Origin: Octopus vulgaris
Taxonomy: Eukaryota
Reading direction: 5' to 3'
DNA: 64,000 nucleotides
Assembly: GCA_951406725.2 (NCBI GenBank)
Contig: OX597818.1
Coordinates: forward strand, 3,968,001-4,032,000
Within the stretch, counting starts at the first letter, position 1, and every line of letters starts with the position of its first letter. Positions 5,976 through 41,185 of this stretch are shown here, piece after piece. A program made the position numbers and the translations under genes. The notes beneath the pieces were generated by a model. The model was not told the origin of the DNA. It made no database searches and was given only the letters and a program-made list of their open reading frames with translations.

Positions 5976-6929
5976 TCACTACCACTCAGAGTGAAAGGTA
6001 GAATGTACAATGCATATGCCTGAACTGCCATGCTTCATGGCAGTGAAACATGGGCTGTGACCGTGGAGGACATGCGCAGGCTTGAAAGAAATGAAGATAG
6101 CATGATCCGCTGGATGCGTAATGTCAGTGTGCACACATGACAGAGTGTAAGCGCCCTGAGAGAAATGTTGGACATAAGAAACATCAGATGTTGCATGCAT
6201 GAGAGACATTTGCACTGGTATGGTCATTTACTACAGATAGATGAGGAGAGATATGTAAAGAAGTGCCACTCCCAAACAGTTGAAGGAATCCGGGTAGAGG
6301 TAGACCCAGGAAGACATGGTATGAGGTGGTCAAGCATGACCTTCGAATGTTGGGCCTCACAGAGGCAATGTCAAAAGACTGAGATCTCTGGAGATATGCT
6401 GTGACTGTGAAGACCCGGTAAATAAAGTGAGTTCATGGCTGTATCCTACACCAGTTTCACATAACCAGCCCTAGCCCACTCAAAAGTACCTTGGATCGTA
6501 GGGCAAACTGCTGTGCTTGCCTTGGATCATAGGGTGACCTGCTGTGCTTGAGGAGACCTATTGAGGCAAGTACATCAAAACTAAAATCAAATGGAAATTG
6601 TAGCTGTGATCCCCATGCTAGTGGCATGTAAAAAGAACCATCCGAATGTGGCTGATGCCAGCACTGCCTTGACTCTTTTACATGCTGGTGGCACGTAAAA
6701 AGAAGTAACTGATTGTGGTCGTTTCTAGCCTCCTCTGGCCCTTTTGCAGGTGGCATGTAAAAAGTAGCCACTACACTCTCAGAGTGGTTGGCGTTAGGAA
6801 GGGCATCCTGCTGTAGAAACACTGCCAGATAAGACTGGAGCCTGGTGCAGCTTCCTGGCTTCCCAGACCCCAGTCAAACCGTCCAACCCATGTCAGCATG
6901 GAAAATGGACGTTAAACAATGATGATGAT
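5976..6929 (+). mobile_element. 5'-truncated RTE-clade LINE (degenerate RT C-terminus, 3' UTR, (GAT)n tail)
   Basis: Homologous to 34670-35630 (LRVKGR...ETWAVT...RLHWYGH) and ends in GATGATGAT. Confidence 0.85.
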
Positions 6930-6937
6930 AGCGATAT

Positions 6938-7954
6938 ATCATCATCATCATCATCATCATTTAGCATCTGCTTTCCATGCTAGCATGGGTTGGACGGTTC
7001 AACTGGGGACTGGGAAGCCAGAAGGCTGCATCAGGCCCAGTCTGATCTGGCAATGTTTCTACGGCTGGATACCCTTCCTAATGCTAACCACTCCGTGAGT
7101 GTAGTGGATGCTTTTTACGTGCCACCGGCACAGGTGCCAGACGAGTCTGGCAAACGGCCACAATCGGATGATGCTTTTTACGTGCCACCGGCATGGGGGC
7201 CAGTCGGGGCGGCGCTGGCAACGGCCACGTTCGGATGGTTCTCTTATGTGCCACCGGCACTGGTATCTTAGCTGCAATTTCCATTGATGTTGATCGATTT
7301 CGATTCTCATTTGCCTCAACAGGTCTTCACAAGTAGAGTTTTGTGTCCCAAGAAGGAAAGGTATGCATAAGTGGACTGGCTACATCCCGTGTAGAGGCCA
7401 TGGGTTATGGTCTCACTTGTCCTGTCGGGTCTTCTCACGCACAGCATACTTCCATAGGTCTCGGTCTCTAGTCATTTCCTCAGTGAGACCTAAAGTTCGA
7501 AGGTCGTGCTTCACCACCTCGTCCCAGGTTTTCCTGGGTCTACTTCTTCCACAGGTTCCCTCAACCGCTAGGGTGTGGCACTTTTTCACACAACTATCTT
7601 CATCCATTCTCACCACATGACCATACCAGCGCAAACGTCTCTCTTGCACACCACATCTGATGCTTCTTAGGTCCAGCTTTTCTCTCAAGGTACTTACACT
7701 CTGTCGAGTATGAACACTGACGTTACACATCCATCGGAGCATACTGGCTTCATTTCTTGCAAGCTTACACATATCCTCTGCAGTCATGGCCCATGTTTCA
7801 CCACCATGTAGCATGGCTGTTCGTACACACTCATCATACAGTCTGCCTTTTATTCTGAGCGAGAGGCCTTTTGTCACCAGCAGTGGGAAGAGCTCTCTGA
7901 ACTTTGCCCAAGCTATTCTTACTCTAGCAGTTACACTTTCAGCACACCCGCCCC
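6938..7954 (-). mobile_element. 5'-truncated RTE-clade LINE, second subfamily
   Basis: ORF 7413-7976(-) reads GGCAESVTARVRIAWAKFREL...RLRWYGHVVRM...GRSRPRKTW. (CAT)n at 6938-6960. Confidence 0.9.
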
Positions 7955-8896: not shown

Positions 8897-11013
8897 ATGT
8901 ATATATACCCGCTGGATTTTTCTCAGAAAAATATACCTATCCCTGCACGGAAACAATATCTCAAAGGTCTTATAGAGAAAACAGAAGAGTTTATTCGAAG
9001 ATTGAGATGGAAAGCCTTCTTCTTTGATAATAAACAGAAAATAGAAGGAAACAAATATGGATTTAAATCTCCCAGAAACCCGCCACCTATTCCGGAATTA
9101 GAAGCCTTCGAGAAAGACCTTTTCGAGCTTATTAGGAAAATTAAATTCCGCAAATATACCAACGAATTGCAGAAAAATATGAGAGAAAAAATTAAGGAGA
9201 TTAACGACTCGAATAAGATCTTCGTTAATTCTGACAAGACAAGGAACTTATATGCACTTGATAAGGACGTTTATAAGCGCCTGATTTCGAATAGTGTCAC
9301 AGACACATACAAAAAAGACAACATGAATATATACAAAGAGGTGAACTTAGAAGCAAGAGGAATAGCTAACGATCTTAAGATTAGCGATAGGATTGAATAT
9401 CTTTCACCACGACCAGCTTTTATTACTCTGAAAGACCATAAAGCCAATTTTAGTAGAAACCCCAAATGTAGATTGATAAATCCGGCTAAAACTGAGATAG
9501 GAATTATTAGCAAAAATATTTTGGACCGTATTTTAGTTAAGTTAGATAGCGAAGTAGACTTGAGAATTTGGAAGAATAGTAAGTCAGTCATAGAGTGGTT
9601 TAAAGGTATTAGCTATAAGAATAATTGTAGTTTCACACAATTCGACATTATTGACTTTTACCCGTCAATATCTAGGACGTTGCTCCTAAGGGCATTGGAC
9701 TTCGCCAAGCAATATGTCAACATCGATAGCTCGGAAATTGATATTATTATACATGCGAGGAAATCGCTTCTTTTTTTCGAGGATTCCACCTGGATTAAGA
9801 AGACCGAGGATTCTCTTTTCGATGTACCGATGGGGGCATACGACGGGGCTGAGTTATGTATGCTCATAGGAGCCTTTATTCTCCGTAATCTAAAAATAGA
9901 ATTCCCTTTTATAGATGCAGGTTTATATAGGGATGACGGCCTTATAGCCACGCATAATCTAAATGGCCATGAATCAGATAGACTTAGGAAGGACCTCATA
10001 GCTTTCTTTCAAAGGATGGGCTTACGGGTTACGATAGATGCTAACCTGAATAGTGTAGATTTTTTAGATGTAAATTTTAATGTAAGATCAGATAGATTTA
10101 AACCTTTCCGTAAGCCCAATGAAAAGATTCGAACCATCCACCAGTTATCCTTAGGAACTTAGTCAGCAATGTAGGTAGAAGAATATCTTCAATTTCTTCG
10201 GACGAGGCAGCATTCCATAATGCTGCACCTTATTACGATAGCGCATTAAAGAATAGTGGATTCTCTGAGAAGATCCAGTTCAACCAGCTTAATGCTGATA
10301 ATAATGCTGCACGAAGAACTAGGACCAGGAAAGTTTTGTGGTTCAACCCGGCTTTCAATTTGGCCGTAAAGACTAATATAGGTAAGGAATTTTTGAGATT
10401 AGTCTCTAAGCATTTTAAGCAGGGTCATAAATTCTATAGGATTTTTGATAGAAGAACCCTAAAGGTTAGCTATTCTTGTTGCAGAAATTTCGCCTCTTAC
10501 ATTAGCCAACATAATAGGAAGCTAATTGAGATTAGACATGGTGCCGAGCCCATTAAGAAATGCAATTGCAAAAACGAAAGCTCCTGTCCGTTAGAAGGGA
10601 AATGTCTAGTGAAAGGAGTAGTTTATAGAGCCAAGGTGCAAGTGGAAGGCTCATCAGAATACAAGACATACATAGGGGCTTCAGAAAATTCATTTAAAAC
10701 AAGATTTTATTCTCATAAAAATTCATTTAAATACCCAGAGAATAGGAAGAGGACCAGCCTAGCAAAATATGTCTGGGAACTAAAAGAAAAGGAAGCCCCA
10801 CCTTTCAATGTGACATGGAGCATTCTGGACAGGGCGGCACCATACAGGCATGGAGCTTACAAAAATAATTTCAAGTGCAAACTTTGTCTATTAGAAAAAA
10901 TGTACATCTTATTCAAAGACAATAATTCTTTGAATCAAAGAAGTGAGCTAATGAACTTATGTAGGCACGCGGCTAAATTTAAAATGTCGAATATAAATAT
11001 ACCATATGGATAG
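8897..11013 (+). pseudogene. Penelope-like RT plus GIY-YIG endonuclease, interrupted by one small deletion/frameshift near 10131
   Basis: Motifs SDK, FDIIDFYPSI, PMG, YRDD and DFLDV. After the shift, frame 2 reads NHPPVILRNL...WFNP...KVSYSC...CNCx5CPLEGKC...GVVYRA...YIGASE...FKTRFYSH...CKLCLLEK. Confidence 0.9.
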
Positions 11014-12075
11014 AGTATATATTTTGTATTTTTGATTTTTGAAATTTTGATTTTGACTCTTGAACGATGAGCGCTACAATGGATTTTGTTTTCCAAGCTA
11101 TGCGGATCTTAATCCGTATAGCAAAGTCTTATGTTTCTACATATACATCAGGAAAAACCTTCGACCCTGTTTTCAGGTTACTGTATTGTATAGGATTACC
11201 TTGATTATTTATATTACCTTGATTATTTATAAATGATCCAAAATAGGGTGTTATATTTTATTTTATATGTCTTTCGTATATATTTTTATTAATGCACCCA
11301 TTCTTTTAAAAAAAAGCAATGTTGTCAAAATTAAAATGTTGATGTAAGTATGTGTATAGCCGAGGATATGTATTTGTAAGCATGCGTATCTGTGTATGTG
11401 TAAGTGAGAGTATGTTTGTGCTTAAGCACACGTATACACGACTGTATGTATGTATCCATACGAACTTGTTTGTATACTTGTCTCCATATATGCCAATAAC
11501 GCCGTTACACAGATTGTATACATAATTTTTTCTTATTTCGTTTTTTTCCCCACCCCTCTTTCGTTCCTTTTTCTCTCTCTTCCTTTCTTTCGTCCACCCA
11601 CCTTACTCAGTATATGAGAATCGCTACATACATGATTTTTAACTTGCGTGCGAGATGGTTTTGTGTGAATATATGTACACATGCATTTATGTGTATATTT
11701 AGATTTATATTCATACGTCTGTATATGTATGGCGTTGGCGCGCATCCTTTTTGTGTATGTTGATATATATATGCACATTTTAATAAAAATATGTATTGCA
11801 GTGTAATATTTATAACAGGTTTAATTCCTATGAATTAATTTATACTTTCTTCATTAATGTCAATATGTATTTTATTCAATGTAAGGTTTTTTCCTCGGAT
11901 TTTATAATTTTTTATAAGCTTTTTTATATATATATACATATATTTTTGACCTTTTTGTTTATCGCTCGAAGATTGACCGTTTTTTTCTAAAGGGCCAATC
12001 AAACAAGTCCATTTCTTTTTAAAGGTGTAGCGTTTGTAAGAGTCTAGATTGAATTGATATATCAGTTCCATTCTA

Positions 12076-12128
12076 GCAAAAACTGTCTGATGAACGGCAA
12101 CGAGAAACTCAGAGTAACAGATTTTGTT
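12076..12128 (+). ncRNA. Type I minimal hammerhead ribozyme
   Basis: Stem I AGCAAAA.CTGT/ACAG.TTTTGTT; core CTGATGA (12087-93); stem II CG-GCAA-CG; GAAA (12104-07); stem III CTC-A-GAG; GUA cleavage triplet ending at 12116. Confidence 0.8.
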
Positions 12129-12153
12129 GAATTTTCTGCTGCTTAAAATAAAG

Positions 12154-12240: not shown

Positions 12241-12762
12241 CTGGAAGGTTTACGAAAATTAAACAAAAGACGAAGGCAGGTGGAGTACAAACGAACAAAT
12301 GTATTAGTATGGCGCTCAGGAATAGAAATAGAACAAGTCTTTTACGTTTCAAGCCTACGCTCTTCAACAGAAAGATACACAGAAAAGAAACAAGGAGAGA
12401 AAGAAAATGCGTGTAGGAGCTAACGTGGAGAGAGGAGAGGAGGGGAAAGGAAGGGATGGTAGGGAGAAGAGGAGGAGGGGAGGGGGAGAGAAGGGGAGTG
12501 AGGGAGCAGAGAGAAAGAGAGAAGGGGAAGAGGGAAGAAGAAAGAAGAAAGAAGAAGAGGGAAGAAGGGAAAGAGAGTAGGGGTGAAAAGATGAAGGACT
12601 GAAGAGAAGTAGGAGTCGGGGGGGGAGGTTAGATGAAAAGGGGGGAGAGTTGAGCCCAAATGGCGTAAAAGAGCGAAGAGAGAAGATTAATCCCTGTTCA
12701 CGGCGCAAGCGGGAATCCGGATGGCCTCTGTGCAAGGACAATCTGAACACAGACAGGTGTTG

Positions 12763-12765
<3 letters not shown>
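12240..12765 (-). mobile_element. 3' fragment of a second Penelope-like element (GIY-YIG C-terminus, pyrimidine tract, hammerhead variant)
   Basis: ORF segment RLRREQGLIFSLRSFTPFGLN matches the typical PLE endonuclease ending (RE...I..L....P.GLN). Hammerhead variant at 12338-12375. Confidence 0.7.
12338..12375 (-). ncRNA. Minimal hammerhead ribozyme variant with CUGUUGA core
   Basis: Minus strand reads TCTTT-CTGTTGA-A-GAGC-GTAG-GCTT-GAAA-CG-TA-AAAGA. Stem I is TCTTT/AAAGA and stem III is the palindrome ACGT. Confidence 0.6.
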
Positions 12766-12831
<66 letters not shown>

Positions 12832-14100
12832 CTATTTACTTATTTTTTGAGTATGCATGTAAGTATGAATATAAGGAGGCGCGTGTGTGTGTGTGTATGT
12901 GTAAGCATAGATATATGTATACTTTTACGCATGTGTGTACTTATGTGTATATATGGATGCGCGCGTGTGTGTGTGTGTGTTTGGGTACGCATGTACATGT
13001 GTATGTGCGTGTATGTGTATATGAGTATATATGTAAGTGTGTGCGTATATTTGTATATGTATGTATGTATATGTATGTGTGTGTATGAATATATATATTT
13101 ATGCGCGTATATATATGTATGTATGTGGGTGTGTGTATGTGTATAAATGTATGTATGTATGGATGTATGGATGTATGTATGTATGTATACGTATGTATGT
13201 GTATGTGTGTATATGTATGTATGTGTATGTGTGTATATATATGTATATGTGTGTATGTGTGTATATATATGTATATATGTGTGTGTGTATATATGTGTAT
13301 ATATATGTGAATATATATATATATATATATGTATATATATGTATACATGTATGTATTTGTATGTAGGTGTATATGTATGTGCGTGTATTTATATTTATTG
13401 GTGTATATGTATAGACTAGCCTTCTAAGAGTGTAGACATGAATCTGTAGGTACGCGTATGTATGTGTATATACGTGAATATATGTAGATGTATGTATGTA
13501 TGAATATAACGCGTGCGTATGTGTATGTGTATGAGTGTACGAATGAGTGAGTGTACGTGCTAAAAAGTGCGCGTGAGTGAATGAGTGCTTGTTTTCCAGT
13601 AGACAGATAAATGGACTGGCTGTCATAGCCAAGATGTTTGTGACCAAGCGGCCAAAGATAACAAAAGTAATAAACTGAAGATAATAAAATTAAAATTAGG
13701 GAATGGGTCTGTATTTGTATGTGTATATATATGTGTGTATGTGGAGGTAAGCATAGGTACACATATGTATATATATATATATATATGTATGTATATGTAT
13801 GTATGTGTGTGTATATATGTGTGTATGTGTATATATGTGTATATAGGGACTAATGTGCTGCTGTGTGTGCATGTGTGTGTGTGGATATATGTGTGTGTAT
13901 GCGTGTATGTGAGTATGTGTGTGTATGTGTATATAAATTTTTCTGTGTGTATATGTATACATATATGTGTATGTGTAGATATGTATATGTATGTGTAAGT
14001 GTATATATATGTATATATATATGTGTGTGTGTATGTATGTGTGTATGTATATGTATATATGTTTGTATGTGTGTGTATATATGCATACATATGTGCATAG
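12766..14100. repeat. Compound (TA)n/(TG)n/(TATG)n microsatellite tract
   Basis: Directly visible low-complexity sequence. Confidence 0.9.
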
Positions 14101-14361
14101 GTATAAGTGAGAATCTCCTTATTTACCTAAAACTCTATTTCCCCTTTTTTTATATATATATATTTTATTTTTTATTTTTTTATTTTTTTATTTATTTATT
14201 TATTTATTTTTTTATTTATTCTTCTATCTAATTTAACCCTGACTCCTTGACCACTCCCCCAAGTATGATACTTTGCGCTATGCCTACCCCCAAAAAGTCC
14301 CCCACCAACACCCCTTTAAACCTGCCTAAATGTATAAATGCTAATACAATTCTTGTTAAAT

Positions 14362-14412
14362 AGCTTCCTGAAGATTTCTCTTGAATGAAACAGTACTAGT
14401 CCTGTAGAAGCT
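14362..14412 (+). ncRNA. Type I hammerhead ribozyme in a probable PLE terminal-repeat fragment
   Basis: AGCTTC-CTGAAGA-T-TTC-TCTT-GAA-T-GAAA-CAG-TACTAGTC-CTG-TA-GAAGCT. All three stems close, and AATAAA follows about 10 nt downstream. Confidence 0.8.
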
Positions 14413-14495
14413 CCTTCTATATAATAAATTAATTTTACTCTGCTATGTATTGAGTACCTTATTTACTGTGGTTAACCCCGAATCAACCCGGGACC

Positions 14496-14529
<34 letters not shown>

Positions 14530-14780: not shown

Positions 14781-14838
14781 TTCAATTTATCTTTGTGTGT
14801 GTGTATACATGTATATATATATGGATATATACATGTAA

Positions 14839-15068
14839 GGCGTCGAACTGGCAGAAACGTTAGCACGCCGGGCGAAATGCATAGCCGTATTTCGTCTGTC
14901 GTTACGTTCCGGGTTCGAATTCCGCCGAGCTCGACTTCGCCTTTCATCCTTTCGGGGTCGATAAATTAAGTACCAGTTACGCACTGGGGTCGATGTAATC
15001 GACTTAATCCCTTTGTCTGTCCTTGTTTGTCCCCTCTGTGTTTAGCCCCTTGTGGGTAGTAAAGAAAT
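14839..15068 (+). mobile_element. tRNA-derived SINE (octopus OK/OR-like)
   Basis: Pol III A-box-like TGGCAGAAACGTTAG and B box GGTTCGAATTCC. Close homologue at 16614. Confidence 0.85.
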
Positions 15069-15089
15069 ATATATATATATATATATATA

Positions 15090-16575: not shown

Positions 16576-16613
<38 letters not shown>

Positions 16614-16616
<3 letters not shown>

Positions 16617-16842
16617 GGCGAGCTGGCAGAATCGTTTGTACGCCGGGCGAAATGCGTAGAGTATTTCGTCTGCCGTTACGTTCTGAGTTCAAATTCCGCT
16701 GAGGTCGACTTTGCCTTTCATCCTTTCGGGGTCGATAAATTAAGTACCAGTTACGCACTGGGGTCGTTTTAATCGTCTTAATCCGTTTGTCTGTCCTTGT
16801 TTGTCCCATCTGTGTTTAGCCCCTTGTGGGTAGTAAAGAAAT
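16614..16842 (+). mobile_element. tRNA-derived SINE (same family as 14839)
   Basis: High identity to 14839-15068. B box AGTTCAAATTCC. Confidence 0.85.
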
Positions 16843-17124
16843 ACATATATATATATATATGGATTTCGTAGACAGAAACTGAAAGAAATCAATCGTATAT
16901 ATATATGTATGTAGAAATCTAAGGGTATGTGTGTGTCTTTGTCTCTGTATTTCACCCTCATCACTGCTTCACAACTGCTGTTCATTTATTTACATCCCCA
17001 TAACTTACTGGTTTCACAAAAAGAAACTAATAGAATAAGTATCAGGCTTATCAACATAAAAAAAACACTAGGCTGTGTCTCATATTTTTGTTTGCCCACT
17101 CAGTTGTATCTATCAATTTATCTT

Positions 17125-19230: not shown

Positions 19231-20566
19231 ACGGAATCACCCGTCGTCGCCCGTCCCGAATGGCTCACACAAGTTCCGCCATGGAACCCAAAGAGGCGGA
19301 GAGAGGAGATACAGATAGATACTGCCACAACCTCAACAGCACAGAGATACAGAGGCACAACCCGAGATACAACCCAAAGAGGCAAGGCAACAACTGGCAA
19401 CACTGGCTTATATTCAAACAACAGTTTATACGACAATCAATTGCTACACATCAAATACATTTAAGGCAAACAACAAATCAATACATCATACGGTATACCA
19501 CAGATCAAAGCATTTAACAACATGCATGTAACAATATAACAGTGTTCAGTAACGACACAACAAGTCCAGATCAAATAATGTTCACGATACGTCACAGTTC
19601 AATCAGAACACTTCGATACATTATACAATGTTCGTATCACAACAATTCACGTTACAATTCAACAAGTCCTTTACTCAATTCACAATGTTCTTTATCGACT
19701 ACATCGACAGAGTCCTTCTTTTTCTCTCTTCTTTCTCTTCTTTTCTTTTACATCGTGACACATATCAATGCACAATCACATACCTTAATTCCTAACTGAA
19801 TCGCCAGTGTCCCATTCTGCACTCATCTCTTAATACTGCTAAATCCTCTGAATACTCTGCTAATTCCCCTCTGTGCATATTCCAATCGCTTGCTCCTAGG
19901 CCTCCTCGCATCCCAGCTCGCTCCCAGGAATTCCAACGCTTGCTCCTTAAATCCAAGGTTCCATCCACTCGCTCTGACCTCCAGAGTCCGTCTGTCTTCT
20001 TCGAGGACCGGCCAGCGACTGCAAGATCCGTCTGTGTTCTTCGACGACCGCTCAATGACTGCCAAGACCTCACTTCGTCTCTGTCCTTCTTCCACTCCCC
20101 TCATCTCCCTCTGTCTATATCGCTCTTACCCTTTCTAACTGCTCTCTGATTCCTTATACCCTATCTATATCGCCTGCTGTCTCTTAGCCTTTCTATCTGT
20201 CCCTTACTGCTTATCCTTTCTATTTGCCCTCTGCTCTTACTCTATCGCTATCGCCTGCCAGACTCTTAGCCTCTCCATCCGTCCCTTACTCTTATACTCC
20301 ATCTCTCTCATGACAGCTCTACCATACTCTCTGCCTGTCCTTCTCTCTTACTGTCAATACCCTCTCCATCTGCTCTTAGATTCCCTTAATCTGTCTTCCT
20401 CTTCTTTCACTTCTCACTGACCCTCTTATCAACCACACGAGGTCACAGGTCATTCCAAAACCCATTAGTCTTCCATTAGACAAAAGACTGTCACATTTCG
20501 CCCAGACATGCCGGAACCATAATTCCAATGTGGGTCACCAAGACTGCACTAGCTAAACTCATAACA
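19227..20566. mobile_element. Probable solo LTR inserted in (TA)n
   Basis: TGTTAC...ATAACA termini with ATAT on both sides. No coding capacity. Confidence 0.7.
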
Positions 20567-20691
20567 ATATATATATATATATATATAATGTATATATACT
20601 TATATGTATATATTTATATATATATATATGTATATATATAAATATACATATATACATATATGTATATATATATGTATAAATATACATATAT

Positions 20692-21005
20692 CATCATCAT
20701 CATCATCCTCGTTTAACATCCGTTTTCAGTGCTAGCACGGGTTGGACGGTTTGACCGGGCTCTGGAAAGCCAGGAGGCTGCACCAGGCTCCAGTGTGATC
20801 TGGCAGTGTTTCTACAGCTGGATGCCCTTCCTAACGCCAACCACTCCGTGAGCATAGTGGGTGCTTTTTACATGCCACCGGCACAGGTGCCAGACGAGGC
20901 TGGCAGCACCCATAATCGGCTGCTGCTTATTACGTGCCACTGGCACAGAAGCCAGTCAAAGCGGCACTGGCATCGGCCATGTTCGGATGATGCTTTTTAT
21001 GTGCC
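20692..21005 (-). mobile_element. RTE LINE 3' UTR fragment
   Basis: (CAT)n followed by GTTTAACATCCGTTTTC...GGATGCCCTTCCTAACGCCAACC, as in the other copies. Confidence 0.85.
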
Positions 21006-22072
21006 ATATACAAATAATTGAGATTCAGTTGAATTAGTTACTTAAGTTGAAGCACCAAGTCAGTTCAGTGTTATTCTCACAGCTCGAAGTAAGGTGAATA
21101 AAATGAAAATAAGCAACAGGATGTCAAGTAGTGACACCGTATGACCATTTCAAGCAGCTCCATGTAATTGAACAATGCAATCATTATATCAATTTAAATG
21201 CATTGCCATCATCAACTGCACAGATAAATAAATAGAATTTTAAACAACTGGACACATTAAAATAATTTTTCTCAAATACTTTAACAGAACAAGATGGAAG
21301 AAGTTCATGTTGTCACTACTGTAGCTAAGAATAGACTACACTTCCAAGAATGGCATGAAGCCCACTGGGGTCATAGCTTGTAAAGGATTGTGGTTCATTT
21401 CTAATTCATTTGTCTCTATATCTAAGACTTGAGAACTGTGTCTGTTTAGAATGAAGGGCAAGATTGAGTTGACTGCTTATGGCTCAGTGTGGTCATAAAT
21501 ATTACCATATGTATCCCTTTTCCTCAGGGAGGAAAGAAGACATTAGGATATATAGTGACTTGGATATAGAGCTACTGTCTATAAAAGGAGGCTGGGTAGG
21601 GGAAGACTCTAAATCCTGATGTTAATTACCAGTTAAAGGGGCAAGATGCTAATAAAACTTAGGATGTTAATACAGACGAAATTTTACCTTGGGGTACTAG
21701 GGGTGATTGTTTATAAACAATATTGTTATGTTGTATTAAAATAAAATTTAAGATTTTCAAAAATGATATCATAACCAAAATAGGTAAAATGTGTGCATAC
21801 ATTAAAAAGGAAAGATTACATAGAACAATTTTAATGTTGTACTTAACTAATTACTTATTAGGTAGTTTCTATAAAGACTGCTCAGGACATTTACCTATGG
21901 AATACTTGAAAGATAAATATATTATCTATATATTAATTATAAGCCAAGAATGAGAAAAAAATAAAGATGTGTACAGATACACAAACATATTACACAAACA
22001 TATACACAACAACAACAGCAACAACAAAATCAACCACAACCAGAGCAACAGCAGCAACAACAACAACACCAA

Positions 22073-22699
22073 TTGACCAGTGCGGTTCTTGCAGAACTGC
22101 AACAATCGATCTGTGCTTTAAAAGGGGAAGTAGCAGGAATAAAAGCAACCATTCAGGTTGGACTCCACAATGAGGGGTCTTATCGGAATGCTCTGCTAAA
22201 GAACCTCCCTGTACCTGTACCTCTTGTCGCATTTAAGACCGCGGATTCTGCCACCCATGAAGTCATTGCCATTGGGGTGCCAGAAGACATGGCTGATCTT
22301 CAGGCTTTTGCTGCCAACTCAGCCAAAGACCTAGGCTGCGTTCCCCCAACGGGTGCTATCCGCCTTGGACGACCTGGCCCAAAACCTAGGCTCATCAAGT
22401 TGTCTTTTACGGACCCCACTGAGGCAACCTCTTACCATCTGGCCTCAGTTAAAGCTGGGCGGGAAAATCGGACCACCTTCCGAACACGCCCAGGCTTACC
22501 GTCCGATGTACGCCCAAAGCTACGTGTAGTGGCTTCCCTGAATAGGAACTCAGCTCTACAGGAAAGCTTCAGTCTTCGGGAAGATGGACAAATCTGGAGA
22601 TTTGTCAAGACTGCTGAAACGTGGAAGAGAGATACCAGCTGGTCTGAGTGCTCTCTACCCACAATAACTAAAAAAACTACAGCAACTCAGGGAAACTAA
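22073..22699 (+). CDS. LINE ORF1 protein (probably 5'-truncated)
   Basis: Coiled-coil-like N-terminus and IGVPE...IRLGRPGPKPRLIKLSF RRM-like motifs typical of LINE ORF1. No ATG start. Confidence 0.7.
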   Translation: MTSAVLAELQQSICALKGEVAGIKATIQVGLHNEGSYRNALLKNLPVPVPLVAFKTADSATHEVIAIGVPEDMADLQAFAANSAKDLGCVPPTGAIRLGRPGPKPRLIKLSFTDPTEATSYHLASVKAGRENRTTFRTRPGLPSDVRPKLRVVASLNRNSALQESFSLREDGQIWRFVKTAETWKRDTSWSECSLPTITKKTTATQGN

Positions 22700-25520
22700 G
22701 CCAGAACAACCTGCCATCCTCTACACACCATCATAAACTGCGAGCAGGGTACAAATTGTTGTCCTTAAATGCTCGCAGTTTATGCAACAAAATACATTTG
22801 TTCAACGCCTACGTCAGAAGTGTTGACCCTGACTTCATCACTGTCACGGAAACATGGGCGCATTCCTTACTCTGTGATGGGGTTTTCAACATTACGGGGT
22901 ACAACCTCTTCCGTAAGGACCGCACTAACCGCCGTGGTGGTGGTGTGATGGTCTACGTTCGTTCAAATTTTTTGGTAATTCCTTGTGCCGATTTGAACGA
23001 ATCACAAGAAGAAGTTTTTTTCTGTGACGTGCGTATGACCATGTCAACACTCCTGCTTGGCGTTGTTTATCGTCCCCCAAGTTACCATCGGGACACACAG
23101 CTTTGCAATGTCCTCCGAGCTGCTGCCAGGAAAACAGCCACTTATGTGTTTATTGCAGGCGATTTCAATCATCCTGAGATCGATTGGGAGACCTTCCATT
23201 GGCCACAGAGTGCAAACGATTTTGTTGAGCTTGTGCTGGACTCAAACTGGTCACAAGTAGTCACCTCTCCAACAAGAGGCGACAACACCTTGGACCTGCT
23301 CTTCACCACAACTCCTGAAGCGGTTATCAATTGCACTACGGAGGAACCTCTAGGTGACTCTGATCATGCTATGATCATCGCCAATCTGGCTCTTGCGGGC
23401 AACAAAAACCTGAACCATCTCCAATCTGCTTCCTTCGATTGGAAGAGAGCAGATTGGAACCTGTACCACACTGAACTACAGCACCCAAACTGGCGTGAAT
23501 TCTACAACTCTGGAGATGTGAATACTATACTCCAGAGTATCCTGGACTCAATATGGGCAGCATGTGCAGCATCAGTGCCACGTAAACAAAAAAAGAAGAA
23601 CCGCCCCAAAAGGGCAATTTGGGAAACTTCAGCGGTCCGACTTGCCAGGAGGGAACGTCGGACTGCTGAACGGGAATACAGGTTGCATAAATCAGACACC
23701 AACAGGAAGAAGCGGAATAAATCCTCCAACCATCTCAAGCAAGTGACAAAAAATGCAGTGCTTGAATTTGAACAGTGCATAGCAGCCAATCCTGACAGCA
23801 AGGTTTTCTGGAAATATGTGCACTCAAAGCAGAGACCTCACTCTCCAGTGGGCCCTCTTCGCAACCCTCACACAAACCAGATCACTGACGACCCCAAGGA
23901 ATGCGCAGAACTCATTGCCGAGTGCTATGCAAACATATTCACTGTTGAAAGTCAAAATGTACCATCTTCACCATCACTAACAGCAAACTCCATAACAACT
24001 ATGGAATTTACACCTGCAATGCTGCGACGTCACCTTCAAAATAAGCGCAACTATGCCTCCCCTGGTCTCGATGGAGTTACATACCTGCTTCTCAAACGTG
24101 GCAGGCACTTCCTTTTACACCAGCTTTCTATTTTCTTCCAGTACTGTCTCAACAATGGTGCTACTCCGGAGCAGTGGAAAACTGCCAGTGTCATTCCTCT
24201 GTTCAAAAAGGGCGACCGCACATCACCTGTCAACTATCGCCCAGTCAGTCTCACTAGCTGTATTGCAAAACTGATGGAATCGTGTGTCAGAGAAACACTC
24301 TGGAACTTCTGGAGCTCTCACAGTCTCATCCGACCCTCACAATATGGATTTGTCCCTAACTCCAGCTGCAGTGACCAGCTTGTCGAGTTCCTTGAGGACA
24401 TTACTCAGATTACTGACAGTGGCTCATGGGTGGATGTTGTCTACCTTGACTTTGCTAAGGCTTTCAACTCTGTGCCACACAAAAGGCTTATGGTGAAACT
24501 CTCTGCAATGGGTGTGGGGGATGACCTTTTTAACTGGTTGAAATCCTTCATCCTCAGCCGAAAGGAGGTAGTCACAGTTCTAGGACAGCACTCTACACCA
24601 TATGAGATGTCATCGGGTGTACCACAGGGATCTGTCCTTGGCCCCCTCTTGTTTGTGGCATACATTAACGACATAGATGCCAATTTAAAGAATGCCACAG
24701 TATTGAAATATGCAGACGACATCAAGCTGTACCTTGAAATCAAGAGGACAGATCCTGATGTCTACAACTCTTTCCTGCAATCAGACCTAGACACAATGCA
24801 GCAATGGATCACAGACTGGCAACTGAAACTGGCTGTGGACAAGTGTACCACCATGCATTTTGGGAGAAAAAACCCTGCGTTCACATACTCCCTCCACAAC
24901 ACTGATATCAAGAAATCCTCTTGCGAGCGTGACCTAGGCATCACTGTCAGCAGTGATTTGCGTTGGTCAAAGCATATCTCTAAGATTGTCAGGAAGGCCG
25001 AGGGTGTCTTGGCATCACTCAGCAGGTCTTTTGTTAGCCGCTCTCCAGCCATCTATTTAAAACTGTATACAGCTATGGTACGACCACACTTGGAATTCGC
25101 ATCATCAGTTTGGAACCCCTATCTTGCACAGAACATTGACCTCCTGGAATCTGTCCAGAGACGTGCAACCAAACGCATACCCTCCATCAGACACCTACCA
25201 TATTCTGAGCGCCTTGTTTCCCTGGGCATGGATTCACTGAAGCTCCGGCGTTTGGCGACGGACTTGGTAACACCCACAAAGTTATCAACCACCTCACCAA
25301 CAACAACACTGAACACCTTTTTGATCTCCATGTGTCTAACACACGTGGACATGCCTACAAAGTCAGAAAACAATACAGCTCCCATGACTTTCGGAAACAT
25401 TTTTTCACGCTCAGAGTTGCTGAAGCATGGAATAAACTGCCTGCGTCAGTTGTTGACTGCCATGACACTGCATCTTTTAAGGCCCTCATGCTTTCCGAAA
25501 TCCGCCGAAACTTCACCTGA
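22672..25520 (+). pseudogene. LINE ORF2 (AP endonuclease plus reverse transcriptase) with a single frameshift near 25270
   Basis: NARSL, VTETW, GDFN, SDH; YLDFAKAF, GVPQGSVLGPLLF, YADD. The true C-terminus TRGH...FFTLRVAEAWNKLP lies in another frame ending at 25520. Confidence 0.9.
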
Positions 25521-25601
25521 TTATATATACACTTTAGATGAGTTGTAGTGCACCTGAGCACTGTACACAATTATTATTATTATTATTATTAACATATGTG
25601 T

Positions 25602-26502: not shown

Positions 26503-27183
26503 ATCATCATCATCATCATCATCATCGTTTAACGTCCGCTTTTCATGCTAGCATGGATTGGACGGTTCAATTGGAGTCTGGGGAGCCCGAAGGCTGCACC
26601 AGGCCAGTCAGATCTGGCAGTGTTTCTACAGCTGGATGCCCTTCCTAACACCAACCACTCCGAGAGTGTAGTGGGTGATTTTATGTGCCACCGACACAGG
26701 TGCCAGACGAGGCTGGCGAACGGCCACGCTCGGATGGTGTTTTTTATGTGCCACCGACACAGGTGCCAGACAAGGCTGGCGGACGGACACGCTCGGATGG
26801 TGTTTTTATGTGCCACCGACACAGGTGCCAGACAAGGCTGGCGAACGGCCACGATCGGATGGTGTTTGTTACGTGCCCACAGCACGGAGGCCAGTCAATG
26901 CGGTACTGGCTACGGCCACGTTCGGATGGTTTTCTTATGTGCCACCGGCACTGGCACCACAAAGATACAAATTCCATTGATGTTCATCTATTTTGATTTG
27001 GTTTGATTTTCACTTGCCTCAACAGGTCTTCACAAGTGTCCCAAGAAGGAAGGTATGCACAGGTGGACTGACTACGTCCCAGGTAGGGGCCACGGGTTAT
27101 GGCCTCACTAGTCTTGCTGGGTCTTCTCACGCACAGCATACTTCCATAGGTCTCGGTCTCTAGTCATTTCCTTGGTGAGACCT
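26503..27183 (-). mobile_element. RTE LINE 3' end with an expanded ~60-bp internal tandem repeat
   Basis: (CAT)n tail. ATGTGCCACCGACACAGGTGCCAGAC.AGGCTGGCG.ACGG..ACG.TCGGATGGTG occurs three times. Confidence 0.9.
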
Positions 27184-27214
27184 ATATATATATACATACA
27201 TATATATATATGTA

Positions 27215-27721: not shown

Positions 27722-28765
27722 TGTTACGCTGCCACTTGGACCCTAGGCCTTCCGATTCCACCACGAGCCCTAAGTCACGACGACAATGCTCAGCAGACCG
27801 GAAATCCACCACGGGAAGGGGGGAAGGTGGCGAACGCAGCCAGGAACCAACACAACGACAACAAAAGAGAGAGACACAGTGGAAGTTGCGTAATTTAGCA
27901 ATTTTTTTCAAAACAAAATCAAAGCATTCCAAAACAAAGGTTGACAAATCATGTACAGAGTTCGAAGAACAATCAATTGCATTTAAACATAATACAGAGT
28001 TCGAAAAACAAATCATATAACATTTGTTCGATTTTCTTTTCCAAGACACATCATTTTACATTTAACACAAAGTTCACAATCAAAAAGGTTCCTTCTCCTC
28101 AAGTTCTTTTTTTTTCTTCCTTTTCTTTTCTCTTAAAAACAGCCAACAACACGCTTCTTTTTTTTTTTTTACACGACAGTTCTCAAAGTTCCTTCTGCTT
28201 TTTTTTTTAAAACAACACATTGACTCTATTTGAACATCGAAATCCGAAACACAAATAAAAAACATTACCACATGTTCCACGCCTGCAACACTCCCTGAAC
28301 ATCACAACCCCCACTATAGTAGTCTGGCTTCTTTATGTCTCTCTCTGCCCCTTCACTGTCATCTTCCTTACTACCTCTCATCCTGTCTCTTGCTCACTCA
28401 CTGTCTGTCTCTCTCTAGACCCTGGCTGTCATCTTTGTGGTTGCCTCTCGCTGACTCCACCATCTCTAACTCACTCCCTTGTCCACTCTGCTCACACTGA
28501 CCCTCTCACGGTTTCTTGCTGACTGCCCAACTAACTTAATGCTAGCCGTATTTATAACGTTGTCCTAGCATTTTTATTTTTTAAAACTTTCTGTGACCAT
28601 GTGGGGGCCATAGATCAATGCCTGGGACCATTAATAATCGTGGTCTTTGACAGGACAAAGGAAATACCATTGTCCTGAACAACTGGAGCGCCAGTTCGAC
28701 TCCAACTAATGGAACAAGGGGCATAGTGTTTTTTTGTTTGTTTACTTTTCCTTGCCTCCGTAACA
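27722..28765. mobile_element. Probable solo LTR related to 19227-20566
   Basis: TGTTACG...CGTAACA termini flanked by ATAT. Shares the CACTGACCCTCT and CCA(A)TGTGGG motifs and the overall layout of the 19227 element. Confidence 0.7.
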
Positions 28766-28811
28766 ATATATATGTATATATACATATATATATATATGCA
28801 TATATACACAT

Positions 28812-28891
<80 letters not shown>

Positions 28892-28908
28892 TGTGTGTGT
28901 ATATATAT

Positions 28909-30269
28909 ATCATCATTGTTTAACGTCCGTTTTCCATGCTGGCATGGGTTGGACAGTTTTACTGGGGTCTGGGAAGCCAGGAGGATGTACCAGGCTCCAG
29001 TCTGATCTGGTAGTATTTCTACAGCTGGATACCCTTGCTAACACCAGCCACTCCGAGAGTGTAGTGGCTGCTTTTTACATGCCATGAGCACAGGGGCTAG
29101 AGGAAGCTAGCAATGGCCACAATCAGTTAGTTCTTTTTACATGCCAGTGGCACATAAAAGAGTCAAGGTGGTGATGGCATCAGCCACGTTCGGATGGTTC
29201 TTTTTACATGCCACCAGCATGGGGATCACAACTACAATTTCCATTTGATTTTGGTTTTAATGCACTTGACTCAATAGGTCTCCTCAAGAACGGCATGTTG
29301 CCCTATCATCCAAAGTACTTTTGAGTGGGCTGGTTATGTGACACTGGTGTAGGTTATAGCTGTGAACTCACTTATCAACACAAATGTCTCTCTTGCAAGC
29401 CACATCTGATGCTTCTTACGTCCAACATTTCTCTCCGGGCGCTTACACTCTGTCATGTGTGTACACTGACATTCCACATCCAGCAGATCATGCCAGCTTC
29501 ATTTCTTTTGAGCCTGCACATGTCTTCAACAGTCATGGCCCATGTTTCACTGCCACGAAGCATGGCAGTTAACACACATGCATCGCACAATCTACCTTTC
29601 ACTCTGAGCGAGAGGCCCTTTGTCACCAGTAGGGGTAAGAGCTTTCTGAACTTTGCGCAAGTGGTAACACTCTCTGAGCATCCGCCCCCATTACAGACTT
29701 GGTAACCTAGGTAGAGTAAGCTATCAACTACTAGTTTCTTCCCCTGGAGTGTGATGGAATCCATTTTTCTGAGCATCTGTGGTGTTTATTGCCCCTGTGC
29801 ATCTGCCGCTCGTGAAAGTTATCTTCCTTTGATGTTGCTGCACCTCTTAAATGTCCATAGCTTACACTGGGTACGTCTTATGGAGTTTCTACCTACACCT
29901 TTTCTACAGATCAAGCATGGCCACCTACCTGAAAGGGTGTGTGATGTGTTCGCCTTCCTACTTTCTAGAATTTTGGTCTTTGCAACATTGACTCTAAGTC
30001 CCTTGGATTCTAAAGATTGCTTCTATACCTGAAATTTCTTCCCTAGTTCTGGTAGTGATTCTGCTATGAGGGCCAGGTCATCAGGATAGAGGAGCTCTCA
30101 GGGGCAACCATTCTTGACTTCCTCTGTTATTGCCTGGAGGACTATGATGAATAAAAAGGGGCTGAGGACTGATTGTTGGTGGACCCCTACTTCTACCCGG
30201 AATTCTTCACCCTACTCATTGCCAACCCTAACCTCACTAACAGCATCTCTGTATAGGGCCTGTAAAGCA

Positions 30270-30270
<1 letters not shown>
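28909..30270 (-). mobile_element. Degenerate 5'-truncated RTE LINE with an internal deletion
   Basis: Homologous to 33985-35630, including LYPDD and the Cys-rich block. Confidence 0.85.
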
Positions 30271-30330
<60 letters not shown>

Positions 30331-30332: not shown

Positions 30333-30395
30333 TTTATTTAAAGCAGCAGAAAATTCAACAAAACCTGTTACTCTGAGTTTCCCATTGCCGTTCAT
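30331..30395 (-). mobile_element. Truncated copy of the Penelope 3' end/hammerhead at 12090-12153
   Basis: The reverse complement ATGAACGGCAATGGGAAACTCAGAGTAACAGGTTTTGTTGAATTTTCTGCTGCTTTAAATAAAG is nearly identical to 12090-12153. Confidence 0.85.
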
Positions 30396-31019: not shown

Positions 31020-34000
31020 GAAGCGATGTCCAAAGCGAGCTAAGAATTACTCATTTCATTTCTTCCAACCCCTCGTACTACATTCGCCGCTAACACTTAA
31101 ATGTCTGAATCTATTCACTAACTGCTTGTTTGTTTTCTTTTCTTTCATGAGCTAACTGTTGATATTGTTCCCCACAAAATATAATCTTTTAATTTTTAAC
31201 CCTATCTCGTAAAGCTTATGTGATAATTATTCGTCCCTGTATGAAGTTAATTTGTTCGTTACTCTATGATATATTCTTCAAACCCTGATTGCTTAATTCT
31301 TCTCATTCCTGTCCCCAATCACACTTTGCCATTCACAGTGTGCCCGCCCTTTCCCGCCCCCACCACCAATACCGGATAACACTATGTTTACACCATCTAC
31401 ACCGGATATCCCTTCTCCCACCACCATTACGCGTGTCTATTCCTCCAACCCCTCCTCTTCAATATGCTATTTCACTATGTATTACCCCTGCCCCTCTTCC
31501 CTAAGACAGAAGCAGCTAGCGCCGCTGCTCATCAACCGTCCCACTTAACCAGTTATCTTACGTTTCCTTCTGTTTTGAAATCTGTCACTGCCTCAACTGG
31601 CCATCTCCTTCCAGTCCCTTCCCTCACTCGTGATATCCTACGTTTCATTCTGTCTAGAACCTGCCACCACCCCTACCTGTCATCGTTTCTCCTAACCCCC
31701 CTCCCCACTGGTGGTCCCCTATATTACCTGCACTCTCTTCCCCCACTTTCTCTGCTGGAACCCTTCCCCACCGCAATGCAACCAATTTTTTCAGCTGGAC
31801 CCCCTCCCCAACCCTAGAATATCCATGTTTCTGCTACGCTGCTTAAACTATGTTACTCAATGACCATAATGCTTGCTTAGAATGCTACTAACACCTAGAA
31901 TATCAGTATGACCTTAATGCTTATGCTTACAACGCTGCTAACACCAGCTCCTGCCGACGGCAGGGGCCACAACCTTAACATGCCTAAATGCTTGAATGTT
32001 GTCAGGTCGGAAGAGAGATCAGATGAAAAATGCGTAAAAAACGATCACCACCACATCACCCGCTCTTCTTTTCAGGCGCTGAATTGCACCCCTCCCCTAC
32101 ACATTACCTTCCCAGTTTTCAGAGTTGGCACTGTCAATGTTGGTACACTGAAAAGTAGGTCTAGTGAGATTGTAGAGATGCTTGAGAGAAGACGGGTTGA
32201 TGTATGCTGCATACAAGAGGTAAGATGGAAAGGAGCTTCAGCTAGGGTCCTCACAGGCAAGGCACATAGGTATAAAGTCTTCTGGCAAGGTAACATGGAT
32301 GGTGTAGGGGGTGTAGGCATTCTCCTTGCGGAGAAATGGGTGGATAAGGTCATAGAGGTTGTCAGGGTTTGCGATAGAGTGCTTAAGCTCAGGTTAGTCC
32401 TACAGAGTGGCACAGCTACGATTATCTCCGCCTATGCCCCACATGCGGGCTACCAAATGATCAGAAGGACTACTTTTATGATACCCTTCTACAGGCTACC
32501 TCAAAGATGAGTGGCAAGGACCTCATCTTTGTGGGTGGAGATTTTAATGGGCATGTTGGGCGGGAATCGGGTATCTTCACTGGGGTACACAGTGGCCATG
32601 GTATTGGCACCAGAAATGATGAGGGAACTAGACTACTGGAATTCTGTGATGCATGTAACCTCTTAATCTGCAACACTAACTTCAGGAAGCCTGACTGCCA
32701 CCTTATAACCTATCAGTCAGGAGACTCCGCTAGCCAAATAGACTTCATCCTCACCAGACAGCAGGGTGCAGGGTTGCTCTTAAATACAAAGACCCTCCCG
32801 GGTGAAGAATGTACGCCTCAGCTTAGGCTAGTCATTAGTGACTTTAGGCTTGAGGCCAGAAGGATTCCAAGAAACAGACCAATCCAGAAAAGAAGGATTT
32901 GGAAGCTGAAGAACCCTTCACAAGGTCAGAGATTTAGGGACATCCTCATCAAGAAATTTGATGAGAGGGAGGAGGATCTACAGACGTCGGACATAGAAGG
33001 TAGCTGGAAATTCCTACAGGTCATCTTGCTGAGTGCCACAGACCAAGTCTGTGGATGGTGCAAAGTCCCTTCCAGACCTAGAGTTACGTGGTGGTGGAAT
33101 AGTGCAGTAGACAAAGCCATTAGTGCAAAGAAACAGGCCTGGAGGGATGGGGGTAGCAGGGAACTGTACCAGGTAGTCAAAAGGGAGGCTGGGCGGCAGG
33201 TATACATAGCCAAAGATGTAGCAGAAAAGAAGAAGTTTGCCAATGTCCAGCGACATGAGGACCAAATAACTAAGGTATTTCGGATTGCTAGACAGTGTGT
33301 GAGAGAAATAGTGATGTTCCAGGAGAGAAATGTGTCCACATGGATGATGGTGAAAAGAAAGAGGCTTGGAGAAGCCATTATGAAAGACTGCTGAATGTGG
33401 AGAATGAATGGGAGGAGGAGAGCCTGCCAAATGTTGACCCAGTAGAGGGCCCAGCTATCCGAATAGACAGCTCCCTTGTAGTTAAAGCAATTAAGGGTAT
33501 GAAACCAGGTAAAATCCCCGGCCCATCACGAATCACTGCTGAGATGCTTAAAACAGCTGGTTATGTGGGCTATGGCCTAGTCACCTGCATTGTAAACCAG
33601 GTAGTTCATAATGGAGTCACACCCAATGACTGGCGTAGCAGCACCATAGTCAACTGCTACAAGGGTAAGGGTGATGCTCAAGATAGAAATAACTACAGGG
33701 GTATTAAACTGTTGGATCAGGTGATGAAGTTCTCAGAGAGGGTCATAACCCATCTCATTAGGGAGAGAATTTGCTTAGATGAGATGCAGTTCAGTTTTGT
33801 GCCGGGTAAAAGCACCACTGATGCTATATTCCTGGTCCGACAACTGCAGGAGAAGTACCTAGCTAAAGATAAACCCCTCTACATAGCTATTGTGGACTTG
33901 GAGAAAGACTTTGACAGGGTCCCCCGATCCCTTATCTGGTGGTCGATGTGGAAACTGGAGATTGATGAATGGCTAATAAGGGCTGTACAGGCCCTATACA

Positions 34001-35630
34001 GAGAGGCTGTCAGCAAGGTTAGAATTGGCAACGAATATAGTGAAGAATTCCGGGTAGAAGTAGGTGTACACCAAGGCTCAGCCCTCAGTCCCCTTTTATT
34101 CATCATAGTCCGCCAGGCAATAACAGAGGAATTCAAAACAGGTTGCCCCTGGGAGCTCCTCTGTGCTGATGACCTGGCTCTCATAGCAGAATCATTACCG
34201 GAACTAGAAAAGAAATTTCGGGTGTGGAAGCATGGGTTAGAATCAAAGGGCCTTAGAGTAAATGTAGCAAAGACCAAAGTTATAGTAAGCAGAAAGGCGA
34301 ACTCAGCACACACACCCTCGGGCAGGTGGCCCTGCTCGATCTGTAGGATAGGTGTAGGTAGAAACTCCATAAGGTGTACCCAGTGTAAGCTATGGACGCA
34401 TAAGAGGTGCAGCAACATCAAAGGGAAATTAACTGATAAGATAGCTTTCATGTGCGGCAGATGCACAGGGACAATACACAGCACAGATACTCAGAAAACA
34501 GATTCCATCATACTCCAGGGGGAGAAACTAAAAGTAGTTGATAGTTTCCGCTACCTCGGTGACCAAGTTAGTAGTGGAGGTGGATGCTCAGAGAGTGTCA
34601 CCACTAGAATACGAATAGCCTGGGCAAAGTTTAGAAAGCTCCTACCCCTACTGGTGACAAAGGGTCTCTCACTCAGAGTGAAAGGTAGATTGTATGATGC
34701 ATGTGTGCGAACTGCCATGCCTCACGGTAGTGAAACATGGGCTGTGACTGCAGAGGACATGCGTAGACTTGAAAGAAATGAAGCTAGCATGATCCGCTGG
34801 ATGTGTAATGTCAGTGTGCATGCACGACAGAGGGTAAGCACCCTGAGAGAAATGCTGGACATAACAAGCATCAGATGTGGTGTCCAAGAGCGACGCTTGC
34901 GATGGTATGGTCATGTACTGTGGATGGATGAGGAGAGCTGTGTGAAGAAGTGCCACTCCCAAACAGTTGAAGGTATCAGGGGGAGAGGTAGACCCAAGAA
35001 GACATGGGATGAGGTAGTCAAGCATGACCTCAGAGCGTTGGGCCTCACAGAGGCAATGACGAAGGACCAAGATCTCTGGATATATGCTGTGACTGCAAAG
35101 ACCGGGGCTGCTTCCTGCACCAGTCCCGCATAGCCCCAGCCCATTCAAAGTTCCTTGGATTTCAGAACATCCCGCTGTGCTTGAGGAGACCTATTAAGTC
35201 AAGTAAATGAACTTCGAAATAAATATCAATGGAAATAGTAGTTGTGATACCTGTGCTGGTGGCACATAAAAAGCACCATCCGAACGTGGCCGATGCCAGC
35301 ACCGCCTCGACTGGCTTCTGTGCCGATGGCACAGAAAAAGCACCATCCGAACGTGGCTGATGCCAGCACCGCCTCGACTGGCTTCTGTGCCAGTGGCACG
35401 TTAAAACCACCTACCGATCGTGGCCGATGCCAGATTCCCCTGGCACCTGTGCCGGTGGCACGTAAAAAGCACCCACTACACTTGCGGAATGGTTGGCGTT
35501 AGGAAGGGCATCCAGCTGTAGAAACACTGCCAGATCAGACTGGAGCCTGGTGCAGCCCCTGGCTTCCCAGACCCCGGTCAAACCGTCCAACCCGTGCTAG
35601 CGCGGAAAACGGACGTTAAACGATGATGAT
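31020..35630 (+). mobile_element. Near full-length RTE-clade LINE
   Basis: C-rich 5' region, APE-RT ORF, 3' UTR with ~60-bp repeats and a (GAT)n tail. The 5' boundary is approximate. Confidence 0.85.
32108..35133 (+). pseudogene. RTE ORF (AP endonuclease, RT, internal PHD-like finger) with frameshifts near 32445 and 33310
   Basis: GTVNVGTL, CIQEVRW, GDFNGHVG, QIDF; VDLEKDFDRV, GVHQGSALSPLLF, CADD (mutated YADD), RLRWYGHV, GRGRPKKTW. Confidence 0.9.
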
Positions 35631-35745
35631 TATATATGTATATATGTGCATGTATATGTATGTGTATATATATATACATGTATATATATATATATATATA
35701 CATGTATATATATACATATATATATATACATGTATATATAAACAT

Positions 35746-35777
<32 letters not shown>

Positions 35778-41080: not shown

Positions 41081-41185
41081 TGTTTTCGTCGGTATTTTCA
41101 GTTGCTTCGTTGCTGGTGATGTGCAAACTGTAATTCTTCGACGCGGTTGATGAAGCTGGTTCCGGGGAAGGCGCGATTCGTTTTA

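Follow-up and report, generated by a model that had tools for sequence, protein, structure and literature searches.

The hammerhead ribozymes of Penelope-like elements (PLEs) are usually proposed to act as a terminal pair that trims a tandem precursor to unit length (PMC6765202, PMC4209133). In animal PLEs, a palindromic loop III together with action as a dimer is the published pattern (PMC4209133; PMC6765202; Perreault 2011, PMC3088659). For the Hydra clade, the rows of File S2 of Craig 2021 (PMC8557442) all have a stem III of 3-4 bp closed by a loop of 1-3 nt (26 of 26); a U.U mismatch lies under stem II in 14 of the 26 and the stem III arms are ACAG/CTGT in four. Proteins of this clade are marked by RWK, DKT and a CxCX5C linker and by the lack of CCHH. 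Almost all families of this clade insert in (TA)n (Craig 2021, PMC8557442), and an optional tail has been described at PLE 3' ends (Craig 2021, PMC8557442; PMC11167929). The natural U10.1-U11.1 is described as the best-tolerated mispair in hammerheads (Perreault 2011, PMC3088659), and it is for this reason not diagnostic of the Hydra clade. The axolotl hammerhead HHR_Amex2, which carries the same mispair, was 22% cleaved in 1 h alone and was far more efficient as a dimer (PMC7229834). The hammerhead of a green anole PLE cleaves, is dispensable for insertion in vitro and had no RNA-seq reads ending at its cut site (PMC11167929); the processing role is therefore uncertain.

The hammerhead analyzed here lies at positions 14362-14412 of a 64,000-nucleotide stretch of Octopus vulgaris DNA (64 kb, contig OX597818.1 of GCA_951406725.2; "the window"), a piece of animal DNA with a high AT content, many microsatellites and numerous retroelements. 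As a sequence, the type I hammerhead is complete: CUGAnGA, GAAA and UH are present in that order, 13 of 13 core letters are intact, and there are three helices of 6, 3 and 4 bp with stem I open-ended. The consensus G10.1-C11.1 pair is replaced by U.U, a described natural exception. The original prediction had named the stems, CTGAAGA, GAAA, the 8-nt loop and the GTA triplet, and all were found as placed; the U.U that it reported in place of G-C at the base of stem II is also present (14375/14386). Two features had been overlooked: a palindrome within loop III, ACTAGT, and the complementarity of 14403-14410 and 14414-14421. The features of the locus are as follows.

12829-14219 (+): TG/TA-rich non-coding stretch, its extent judged from the flanking (TA)n at 12767-12828
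14220-14361 (+): upstream body of the repeat, C-rich and non-coding, with seven variant places and one insertion
14362-14367 (+): stem I, 5' strand, AGCTTC
14368-14374 (+): core C3-A9, CTGAAGA (CUGAAGA), N7 at 14372
14375 (+): U10.1, mismatch partner (U.U) of U11.1 at 14386, at the base of stem II
14376-14378 with 14383-14385 (+): stem II, 3 bp, TTC/GAA, 4-nt loop TCTT (UCUU); the whole part with the U.U is 14375-14386
14387-14390 (+): core G12-A15.1, GAAA
14390-14393 with 14402-14405 (+): stem III, 4 bp, ACAG/CTGT, 8-nt loop TACTAGTC
14406/14407 (+): predicted cleavage bond, 3' of A17 in the GUA triplet 14404-14406; we take its place from the hammerhead consensus numbering
14407-14412 (+): stem I, 3' strand, GAAGCT
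14403-14410 with 14414-14421 (+): competing 8-bp hairpin with a 3-nt loop, -5.3 kcal/mol, a predicted off-switch
14423-14433 (+): AATAAA (14423-14428) and common 3' ends at 14429 and 14433, then (AT)n
14434-14499 (+): 3' extension, in the window copy and part of the family
14500-14527 (no strand): (TA)n microsatellite, 3' junction, likely insertion target

A descriptor scan of both strands, a check proposed with the original prediction, recovered 14362-14412 above chance. The scan gave two matches in the window, this motif and a minimal hammerhead at 12083-12120. Block-wise dinucleotide shuffles gave 0.08 loose matches per window, and none of 300 shuffled windows held an equally strong match, defined as stem I of at least 6 bp, stem II of at least 3 bp and stem III of at least 4 bp. 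The bare core pattern was less discriminating: it matched 2 times where 0.33 matches were expected, and at least 2 matches also arose in 7 of 100 shuffles. The covariance-model check proposed alongside came out negative: the Rfam hammerhead models had no match to the motif, even with E up to 10 on a 266-nt stretch, and the neighbouring minimal hammerhead at 12083 was likewise unmatched at the gathering score. The Rfam E-value matches that did appear were microsatellite-driven miRNA models and were dismissed. The minimum-energy fold of the motif is not a hammerhead, the core pairing with stem II instead (folding z-score -0.07).

Other collections were also searched. The exact motif had no match in prokaryote genomes. 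A generalised U.U pattern gave 66 loci in viral contigs, only one of which has stems I and II, and the remaining loci were taken as chance. The exception, L065:301-344 (-), lies between genes of a phage contig and is a type I hammerhead that has U10.1.U11.1 and 6-bp stems I and III; its minimum-energy structure is the hammerhead (-15.7 kcal/mol). A metagenome scan gave one locus (L001), at which the similarity, judged by eye, ends at the 22-nt pattern; it was also taken as chance.

The motif belongs to a large repeat family. At least half of the words of 14220-14498 were contained in 20 of 24 listed sequencing runs (four organism labels, nine studies), none of which is listed as RNA. Contigs were compared for four of the 24 listed runs, in which 12,477, 2,211, 1,323 and 54 contigs matched the hammerhead repeat (16,065 in total), with identity classes from above 99% down to below 90%. 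Variants were counted at a threshold of 3% of summed contig depth, which does not equal copy number and was not used as such; contigs also lose rare variants. Twelve places in 279 nt varied at this threshold, two of them inside the 51-nt motif. The first is N7 (14372), the sole variable core place, with A replaced by T in 11-19% of summed depth. The second is 14395 in loop III, where T makes up 72-88% of summed depth; this majority letter leaves a central 4-nt palindrome, which an 8-nt loop would have by chance in about 6% of cases. None of the 38 constrained core and stem places varied, both U's under stem II included. This pattern fits selection, but 0 of 12 variants in 38 places is not significant alone (P = 0.17), and covariation was neither seen nor measurable because no stem place varied. 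Since neither 14375 nor 14386 had a variant of at least 3% in the four runs, the U.U is a family trait, and its reading as decay of one copy was rejected.

Loose contig ends before 14362 occurred in all four runs (19, 7, 2 and 3 contigs among the best-supported ends listed), and every run has contigs that differ from the repeat as far as 14361 and align with it from 14362, where stem I begins. In one contig the 20 nt before 14362 are replaced at equal length; the contigs with unlike upstream sequence are therefore at least partly diverged subfamilies. Splice-like signals were noted here: 14341-14363 (+) has a branch-point-like CTAAT and an AG acceptor that ends within the first bases of stem I, and a donor-like GAG/GTAAGC lies at 13747. 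In D. virilis Penelope, an intron terminates at the 5' end of helix I (PMC4209133).

The 3' end of the repeat bears on its classification. Among the best-supported ends listed, family copies leave the element for (AT)n behind 14429 in four of four runs and behind 14433 in two of four, which is 17-21 nt past stem I, and other copies, like the window copy, continue to about 14498. The 14434-14499 extension is likely the optional PLE "tail"; it is about 65 nt long here, against 30-40 bp for the described tail. A hammerhead near the 3' end, two alternative ends and dispersed copies were all found. The repeat's 3' end behaves like a PLE end, and to that extent the original prediction, which pointed to type I hammerheads in Penelope-like elements, is supported. 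The repeat is also inserted in (TA)n, which is not diagnostic of the Hydra clade because Neptune and Naiad PLEs have it too. No RT/EN (GIY-YIG) ORF was found in 12829-14361, which is of low complexity and does not resemble the proteins of the neighbouring PLE. The stretch 12829-14219 is likely the remainder of a 5'-truncated long 3' UTR; here, only the T-rich segment immediately preceding 14226 was shown to belong to the repeat. The host repeat is likely a 5'-truncated PLE of Hydra-clade type; both PLE and Hydra membership go by resemblance because no RT/EN ORF is linked to the hammerhead.

The motif is one of three PLE-type ends clustered in the (TA)n tract. Directly upstream, at 8897-12146 (+), lies a near-complete Hydra-clade PLE with an RT followed by a GIY-YIG-like part. 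Its ORFs 8897-10162 and 10123-11013, into which the reading frame is split at about 10123-10162, carry RWK, DKT and CxCX5C and have an RT-like Atlas match; neither ORF had a Pfam match, and a search of viral and prokaryote contigs gave no relatives of its RT. The ORFs are followed by a 3' UTR of 1.1 kb, likewise long and low in complexity, and then by the element's own minimal hammerhead (12083-12120), whose stem II has A.A at its base and whose stem III is a palindrome of 9 nt. Cross-pairing of this same-strand hammerhead with that at 14362 was rejected, stems I and III being non-complementary. A third, hammerhead-like fragment at 12241-12766 (-) has its core at 12370 (CTGTTGA, with U for A6), a 4-bp stem II and a 5-bp stem I without loop III; it follows a pyrimidine-rich tract and has (TA)n on both sides. 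In addition, the 12083 hammerhead and its 3' end recur in truncated form at 30335-30395 (-), with 93% identity; this second copy begins inside the core and ends in (TA)n, and one of its stem II C-G pairs is changed to U-G.

Elsewhere in the window there are two LINE-type elements with endonuclease and RT domains, at 21965-25548 (+) and 31899-35133 (+), the latter with a weak PHD-finger match below the Pfam cut-off. A minus-strand LTR retrotransposon (36044-44416) has DUF7041, protease, RT, RNase H and integrase at 37094-41182 and an unusual split terminal-repeat arrangement (36044-36463/43998-44416, 99%; 41289-41879/43413-43997, 98%). Repeats with large inverted arms occur in at least seven places at 75-89% identity (5985-7940, 26506-27184, 28761-30274, 33976-35773, 51601-52774, 61956-62553 and 20562-21007) and are likely a DNA-transposon or MITE-like family. 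Copies of a short interspersed repeat lie at 14836-15070, 16611-16843 and 752-868 (91% and 71% identity); that at 14836-15070 presumably resembles an octopus SINE. A DDE_1 transposase fragment lies at 48090-48602 (-).

The original prediction also held that the ribozyme could fold and cleave as a monomer. Part of this was supported: stem III, of 4 bp, is predicted to be able to close within one molecule because loop III has 8 nt. The monomer as the main mode was not, in view of the palindromic loop III, the unstable stem II and the downstream hairpin. The energies given here are nearest-neighbour predictions that ignore Mg2+, tertiary contacts and concentration. In the isolated 51-mer the pair probability of stem III is about 0.73-0.74, or 0.54 with the majority letter at 14395; that of stem I reaches 1.0, and both stems persist until about 14419 is transcribed. 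The active monomer fold has -7.3 kcal/mol and makes up 2.4% of the ensemble, with stem II predicted to be unstable (+0.7 kcal/mol, pair probability about 0.1). In the neighbouring minimal hammerhead at 12083 the stem III hairpin is at +2.1 kcal/mol, the monomer fold at +0.7 and the dimer gain at -11.6. The predicted formation of the monomer at 14362 but not at 12083 favours a real monomer ability.

Pairing between two copies is predicted to be much more stable. The stem III hairpin has -1.4 kcal/mol, against -15.2 kcal/mol for the self-duplex of the 16-nt near-palindrome at 14390-14405, in which 14 of the 16 positions are paired, or 12 when 14395 has the majority letter. The swapped dimer is predicted at -27.0 kcal/mol and two monomers at -14.6, a difference of 12.4 kcal/mol, or 10.0 with the majority letter. 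The dimer leaves the weak stem II unrepaired. Of the two marks of the dimer type, the palindromic stem III and loop III is present and a stem III too short to close is not (4 bp, -1.4 kcal/mol). No complement of loop II (UCUU) that could form a pseudoknot lies within about 30 nt of stem I. The canonical loop-loop contact has a 3' A, which is absent from this loop.

The competing hairpin (14403-14421) includes the cleavage triplet as well as the 3' strand of stem I. For a transcript that begins at 14362, the pair probability of stem I, at first 1.0, is down to 0.52 when the transcript end reaches 14421 and to 0.29 when it reaches 14433; with more upstream sequence included, it is below 0.1. Shuffled tails reproduced this loss in 2 of 500 cases (21-nt tails) and 7 of 500 (40-nt tails), and a local hairpin of equal stability arose in 2 of 1000 shuffles; the test is post hoc, having been chosen once the hairpin had been seen. 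The same controls showed nothing comparable for the 12083 neighbour (320 of 500; 154 of 1000). Within the hairpin, the four runs have no variant of 3% or more. By these predictions, the hairpin would leave a lone copy only a brief period of activity during transcription and would keep re-ligated RNA inactive.

The reading that we consider rather probable places the 14362 hammerhead close to the 3' end of a likely 5'-truncated Hydra-type PLE, where it would act weakly and for a short time as a monomer and would work better when two copies pair. While the end of the growing transcript lies between about 14412 and 14419, stems I and III could form within one molecule, and stem II would then be mostly mispaired with the core. 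After 14414-14421 is made, the 8-bp hairpin would take the cleavage site. Alternatively, two copies could pair through 12-14 of the 16 stem III and loop positions. The cut after A14406 would thus be weak and brief in the monomer and better in a pair joined through stem III. In a tandem pLTR-body-pLTR transcript, as the PLE literature would suggest, two copies may release unit-length RNA, and the hairpin may keep a lone or re-ligated copy shut. The solitary, ORF-less copy in the window is probably a passive relic, whatever the chemistry of its family.

That the enlarged loop III ends the dependence on dimers, so that each copy cleaves alone and efficiently during transcription, is in our view unlikely. 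There are several reasons to consider it. First, loop III has 8 nt here and 1-3 nt in all 26 of the Hydra-clade rows considered. Secondly, stems I and III have the high pair probabilities given above, which last until about 14419. Third, the large-helix-III PLE hammerheads of fungi and protists cleave as monomers (kobs 0.16-1.97 per min; PMC4209133). Lastly, the phage motif L065, in which the U.U goes with a stem III of 6 bp, has exactly the hammerhead fold. However, only about 2% of the ensemble is in the active fold, little stability comes from stems II and III (+0.7 and -1.4 kcal/mol), and the pair probability of stem III drops to 0.54 with the majority letter at 14395. Loop II is without a nearby pseudoknot complement, the palindrome is retained in both alleles of 14395, and the competing hairpin prevails in the finished transcript. 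A related proposal, which we regard as distinctly unlikely, is that in this abundant PLE family loop III was enlarged for monomer cleavage and dependence on dimers was replaced by kinetic control over a window of about 7 nt; the hairpin would then shut the ribozyme, aid release of the 3' product and protect the re-ligated circle. If this were true, thousands of solitary copies could cut host read-through transcripts.

It is improbable that the family has only a hammerhead descendant with no appreciable cutting in any form, made uniform by recent amplification and not by selection. The missing Rfam match and the misfolded minimum-energy structure would agree with this, as would the few variant places across 279 nt and the non-significant result for conservation (P = 0.17). 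In addition, eight of nine amphibian (frog) retrozyme dimers are given as without cleavage in bioRxiv 10.64898/2026.07.22.740005, and PLE insertion in vitro proceeds without the hammerhead (PMC11167929). On the other hand, all 13 core letters are intact and the sole variable core place is the free N7, and diverged subfamilies retain the motif from its first base despite differing upstream sequence.

One contig, in one of the four runs, has a head-to-tail joint 14423 -> 14362 that makes a 62-nt hammerhead unit (14362-14423), which could fold as an intramolecular dimer. A non-autonomous retrozyme-like repeat, that is, a short ORF-less tandem unit making circular RNA as in axolotl or coral, would account for this joint, for the lack of an upstream ORF and for the U.U shared with HHR_Amex2, but it is highly improbable: the hammerhead is a single copy in the 64-kb window and not a short tandem repeat, copies end in (AT)n and not in another unit, the joint is listed for only one of the four runs, and canonical retrozyme hammerheads have a helix III of 1-2 bp with loop-loop contacts, unlike the 14362 motif (PMC4209133, PMC7229834).

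PLE hammerheads, the U.U and palindromic loop III are all already in print. No description of this family was found in the accessible parts of the Craig 2021 supplement, the 2026 Octopus vulgaris repeat paper (PMC13282606) and the hammerhead, Penelope and Octopus literature, of which the Lunse 2017 short-stem-III set may include similar motifs. In file 2 of the Cervera 2014 supplement (PMC4209133) one motif was sought and had no match, and file 1 may bear on novelty. As things stand, this is another PLE hammerhead family with a longer loop III. Hammerheads are frequent in PLEs and have low activity in vitro, and the one reconstituted element can insert without its own. With its many copies, natural loop III polymorphism and candidate off-switch, the family lends itself to asking whether dependence on dimers is under selection. 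Efficient cleavage by solitary copies, if it occurs, could shorten host transcripts at many sites.

Compared with known systems, the family falls between the minimal motifs, which need to dimerise, and the fungal ones, which act as monomers. It shares with the Hydra-clade rows considered (PMC8557442) the type I form, a short stem II, a loop II mostly of 4 nt, self-complementary stem III arms, a place near the 3' end and (TA)n. It departs from them in the 8-nt loop III and the competing hairpin; stem II is also weaker here (UUC/GAA), the U.U and ACAG/CTGT occur together in none of the 26 rows, and the Hydra-1_oBim motif differs in sequence. Like the metazoan PLE minimal hammerheads (PMC4209133), it has a place in likely PLE terminal repeats, a palindromic stem and loop III, mostly solitary truncated copies and an expectation of low-activity dimers. 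Those hammerheads have G10.1-C11.1, an extra base after A9, a long helix II and little or no helix III, whereas the 14362 motif has the U.U, a 3-bp stem II and a closable stem III. In the Aedes repeat hammerhead, complete pairing of loop III in the dimer produces a long stem, a feature shared with the 14362 motif. The Aedes hammerhead differs in sequence and host, and both it and the Nematostella example were inactive as tested (PMC3088659). The best tested analogue is HHR_Amex2 (PMC7229834), with the U.U under helix II and a somewhat more stable helix III; it differs in its 350-bp tandem repeats, its 2-bp helix III with a tetraloop and its loop 1-loop 2 contacts. The fungal and protist PLE hammerheads of the Serpula lacrymans type (PMC4209133) are also of type I, with a closable helix III and no recognisable tertiary contact. 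Their host PLEs are telomeric and lack an endonuclease, and action as monomers has been shown for them, whereas the octopus motif has a 4-bp helix III with a palindromic loop.
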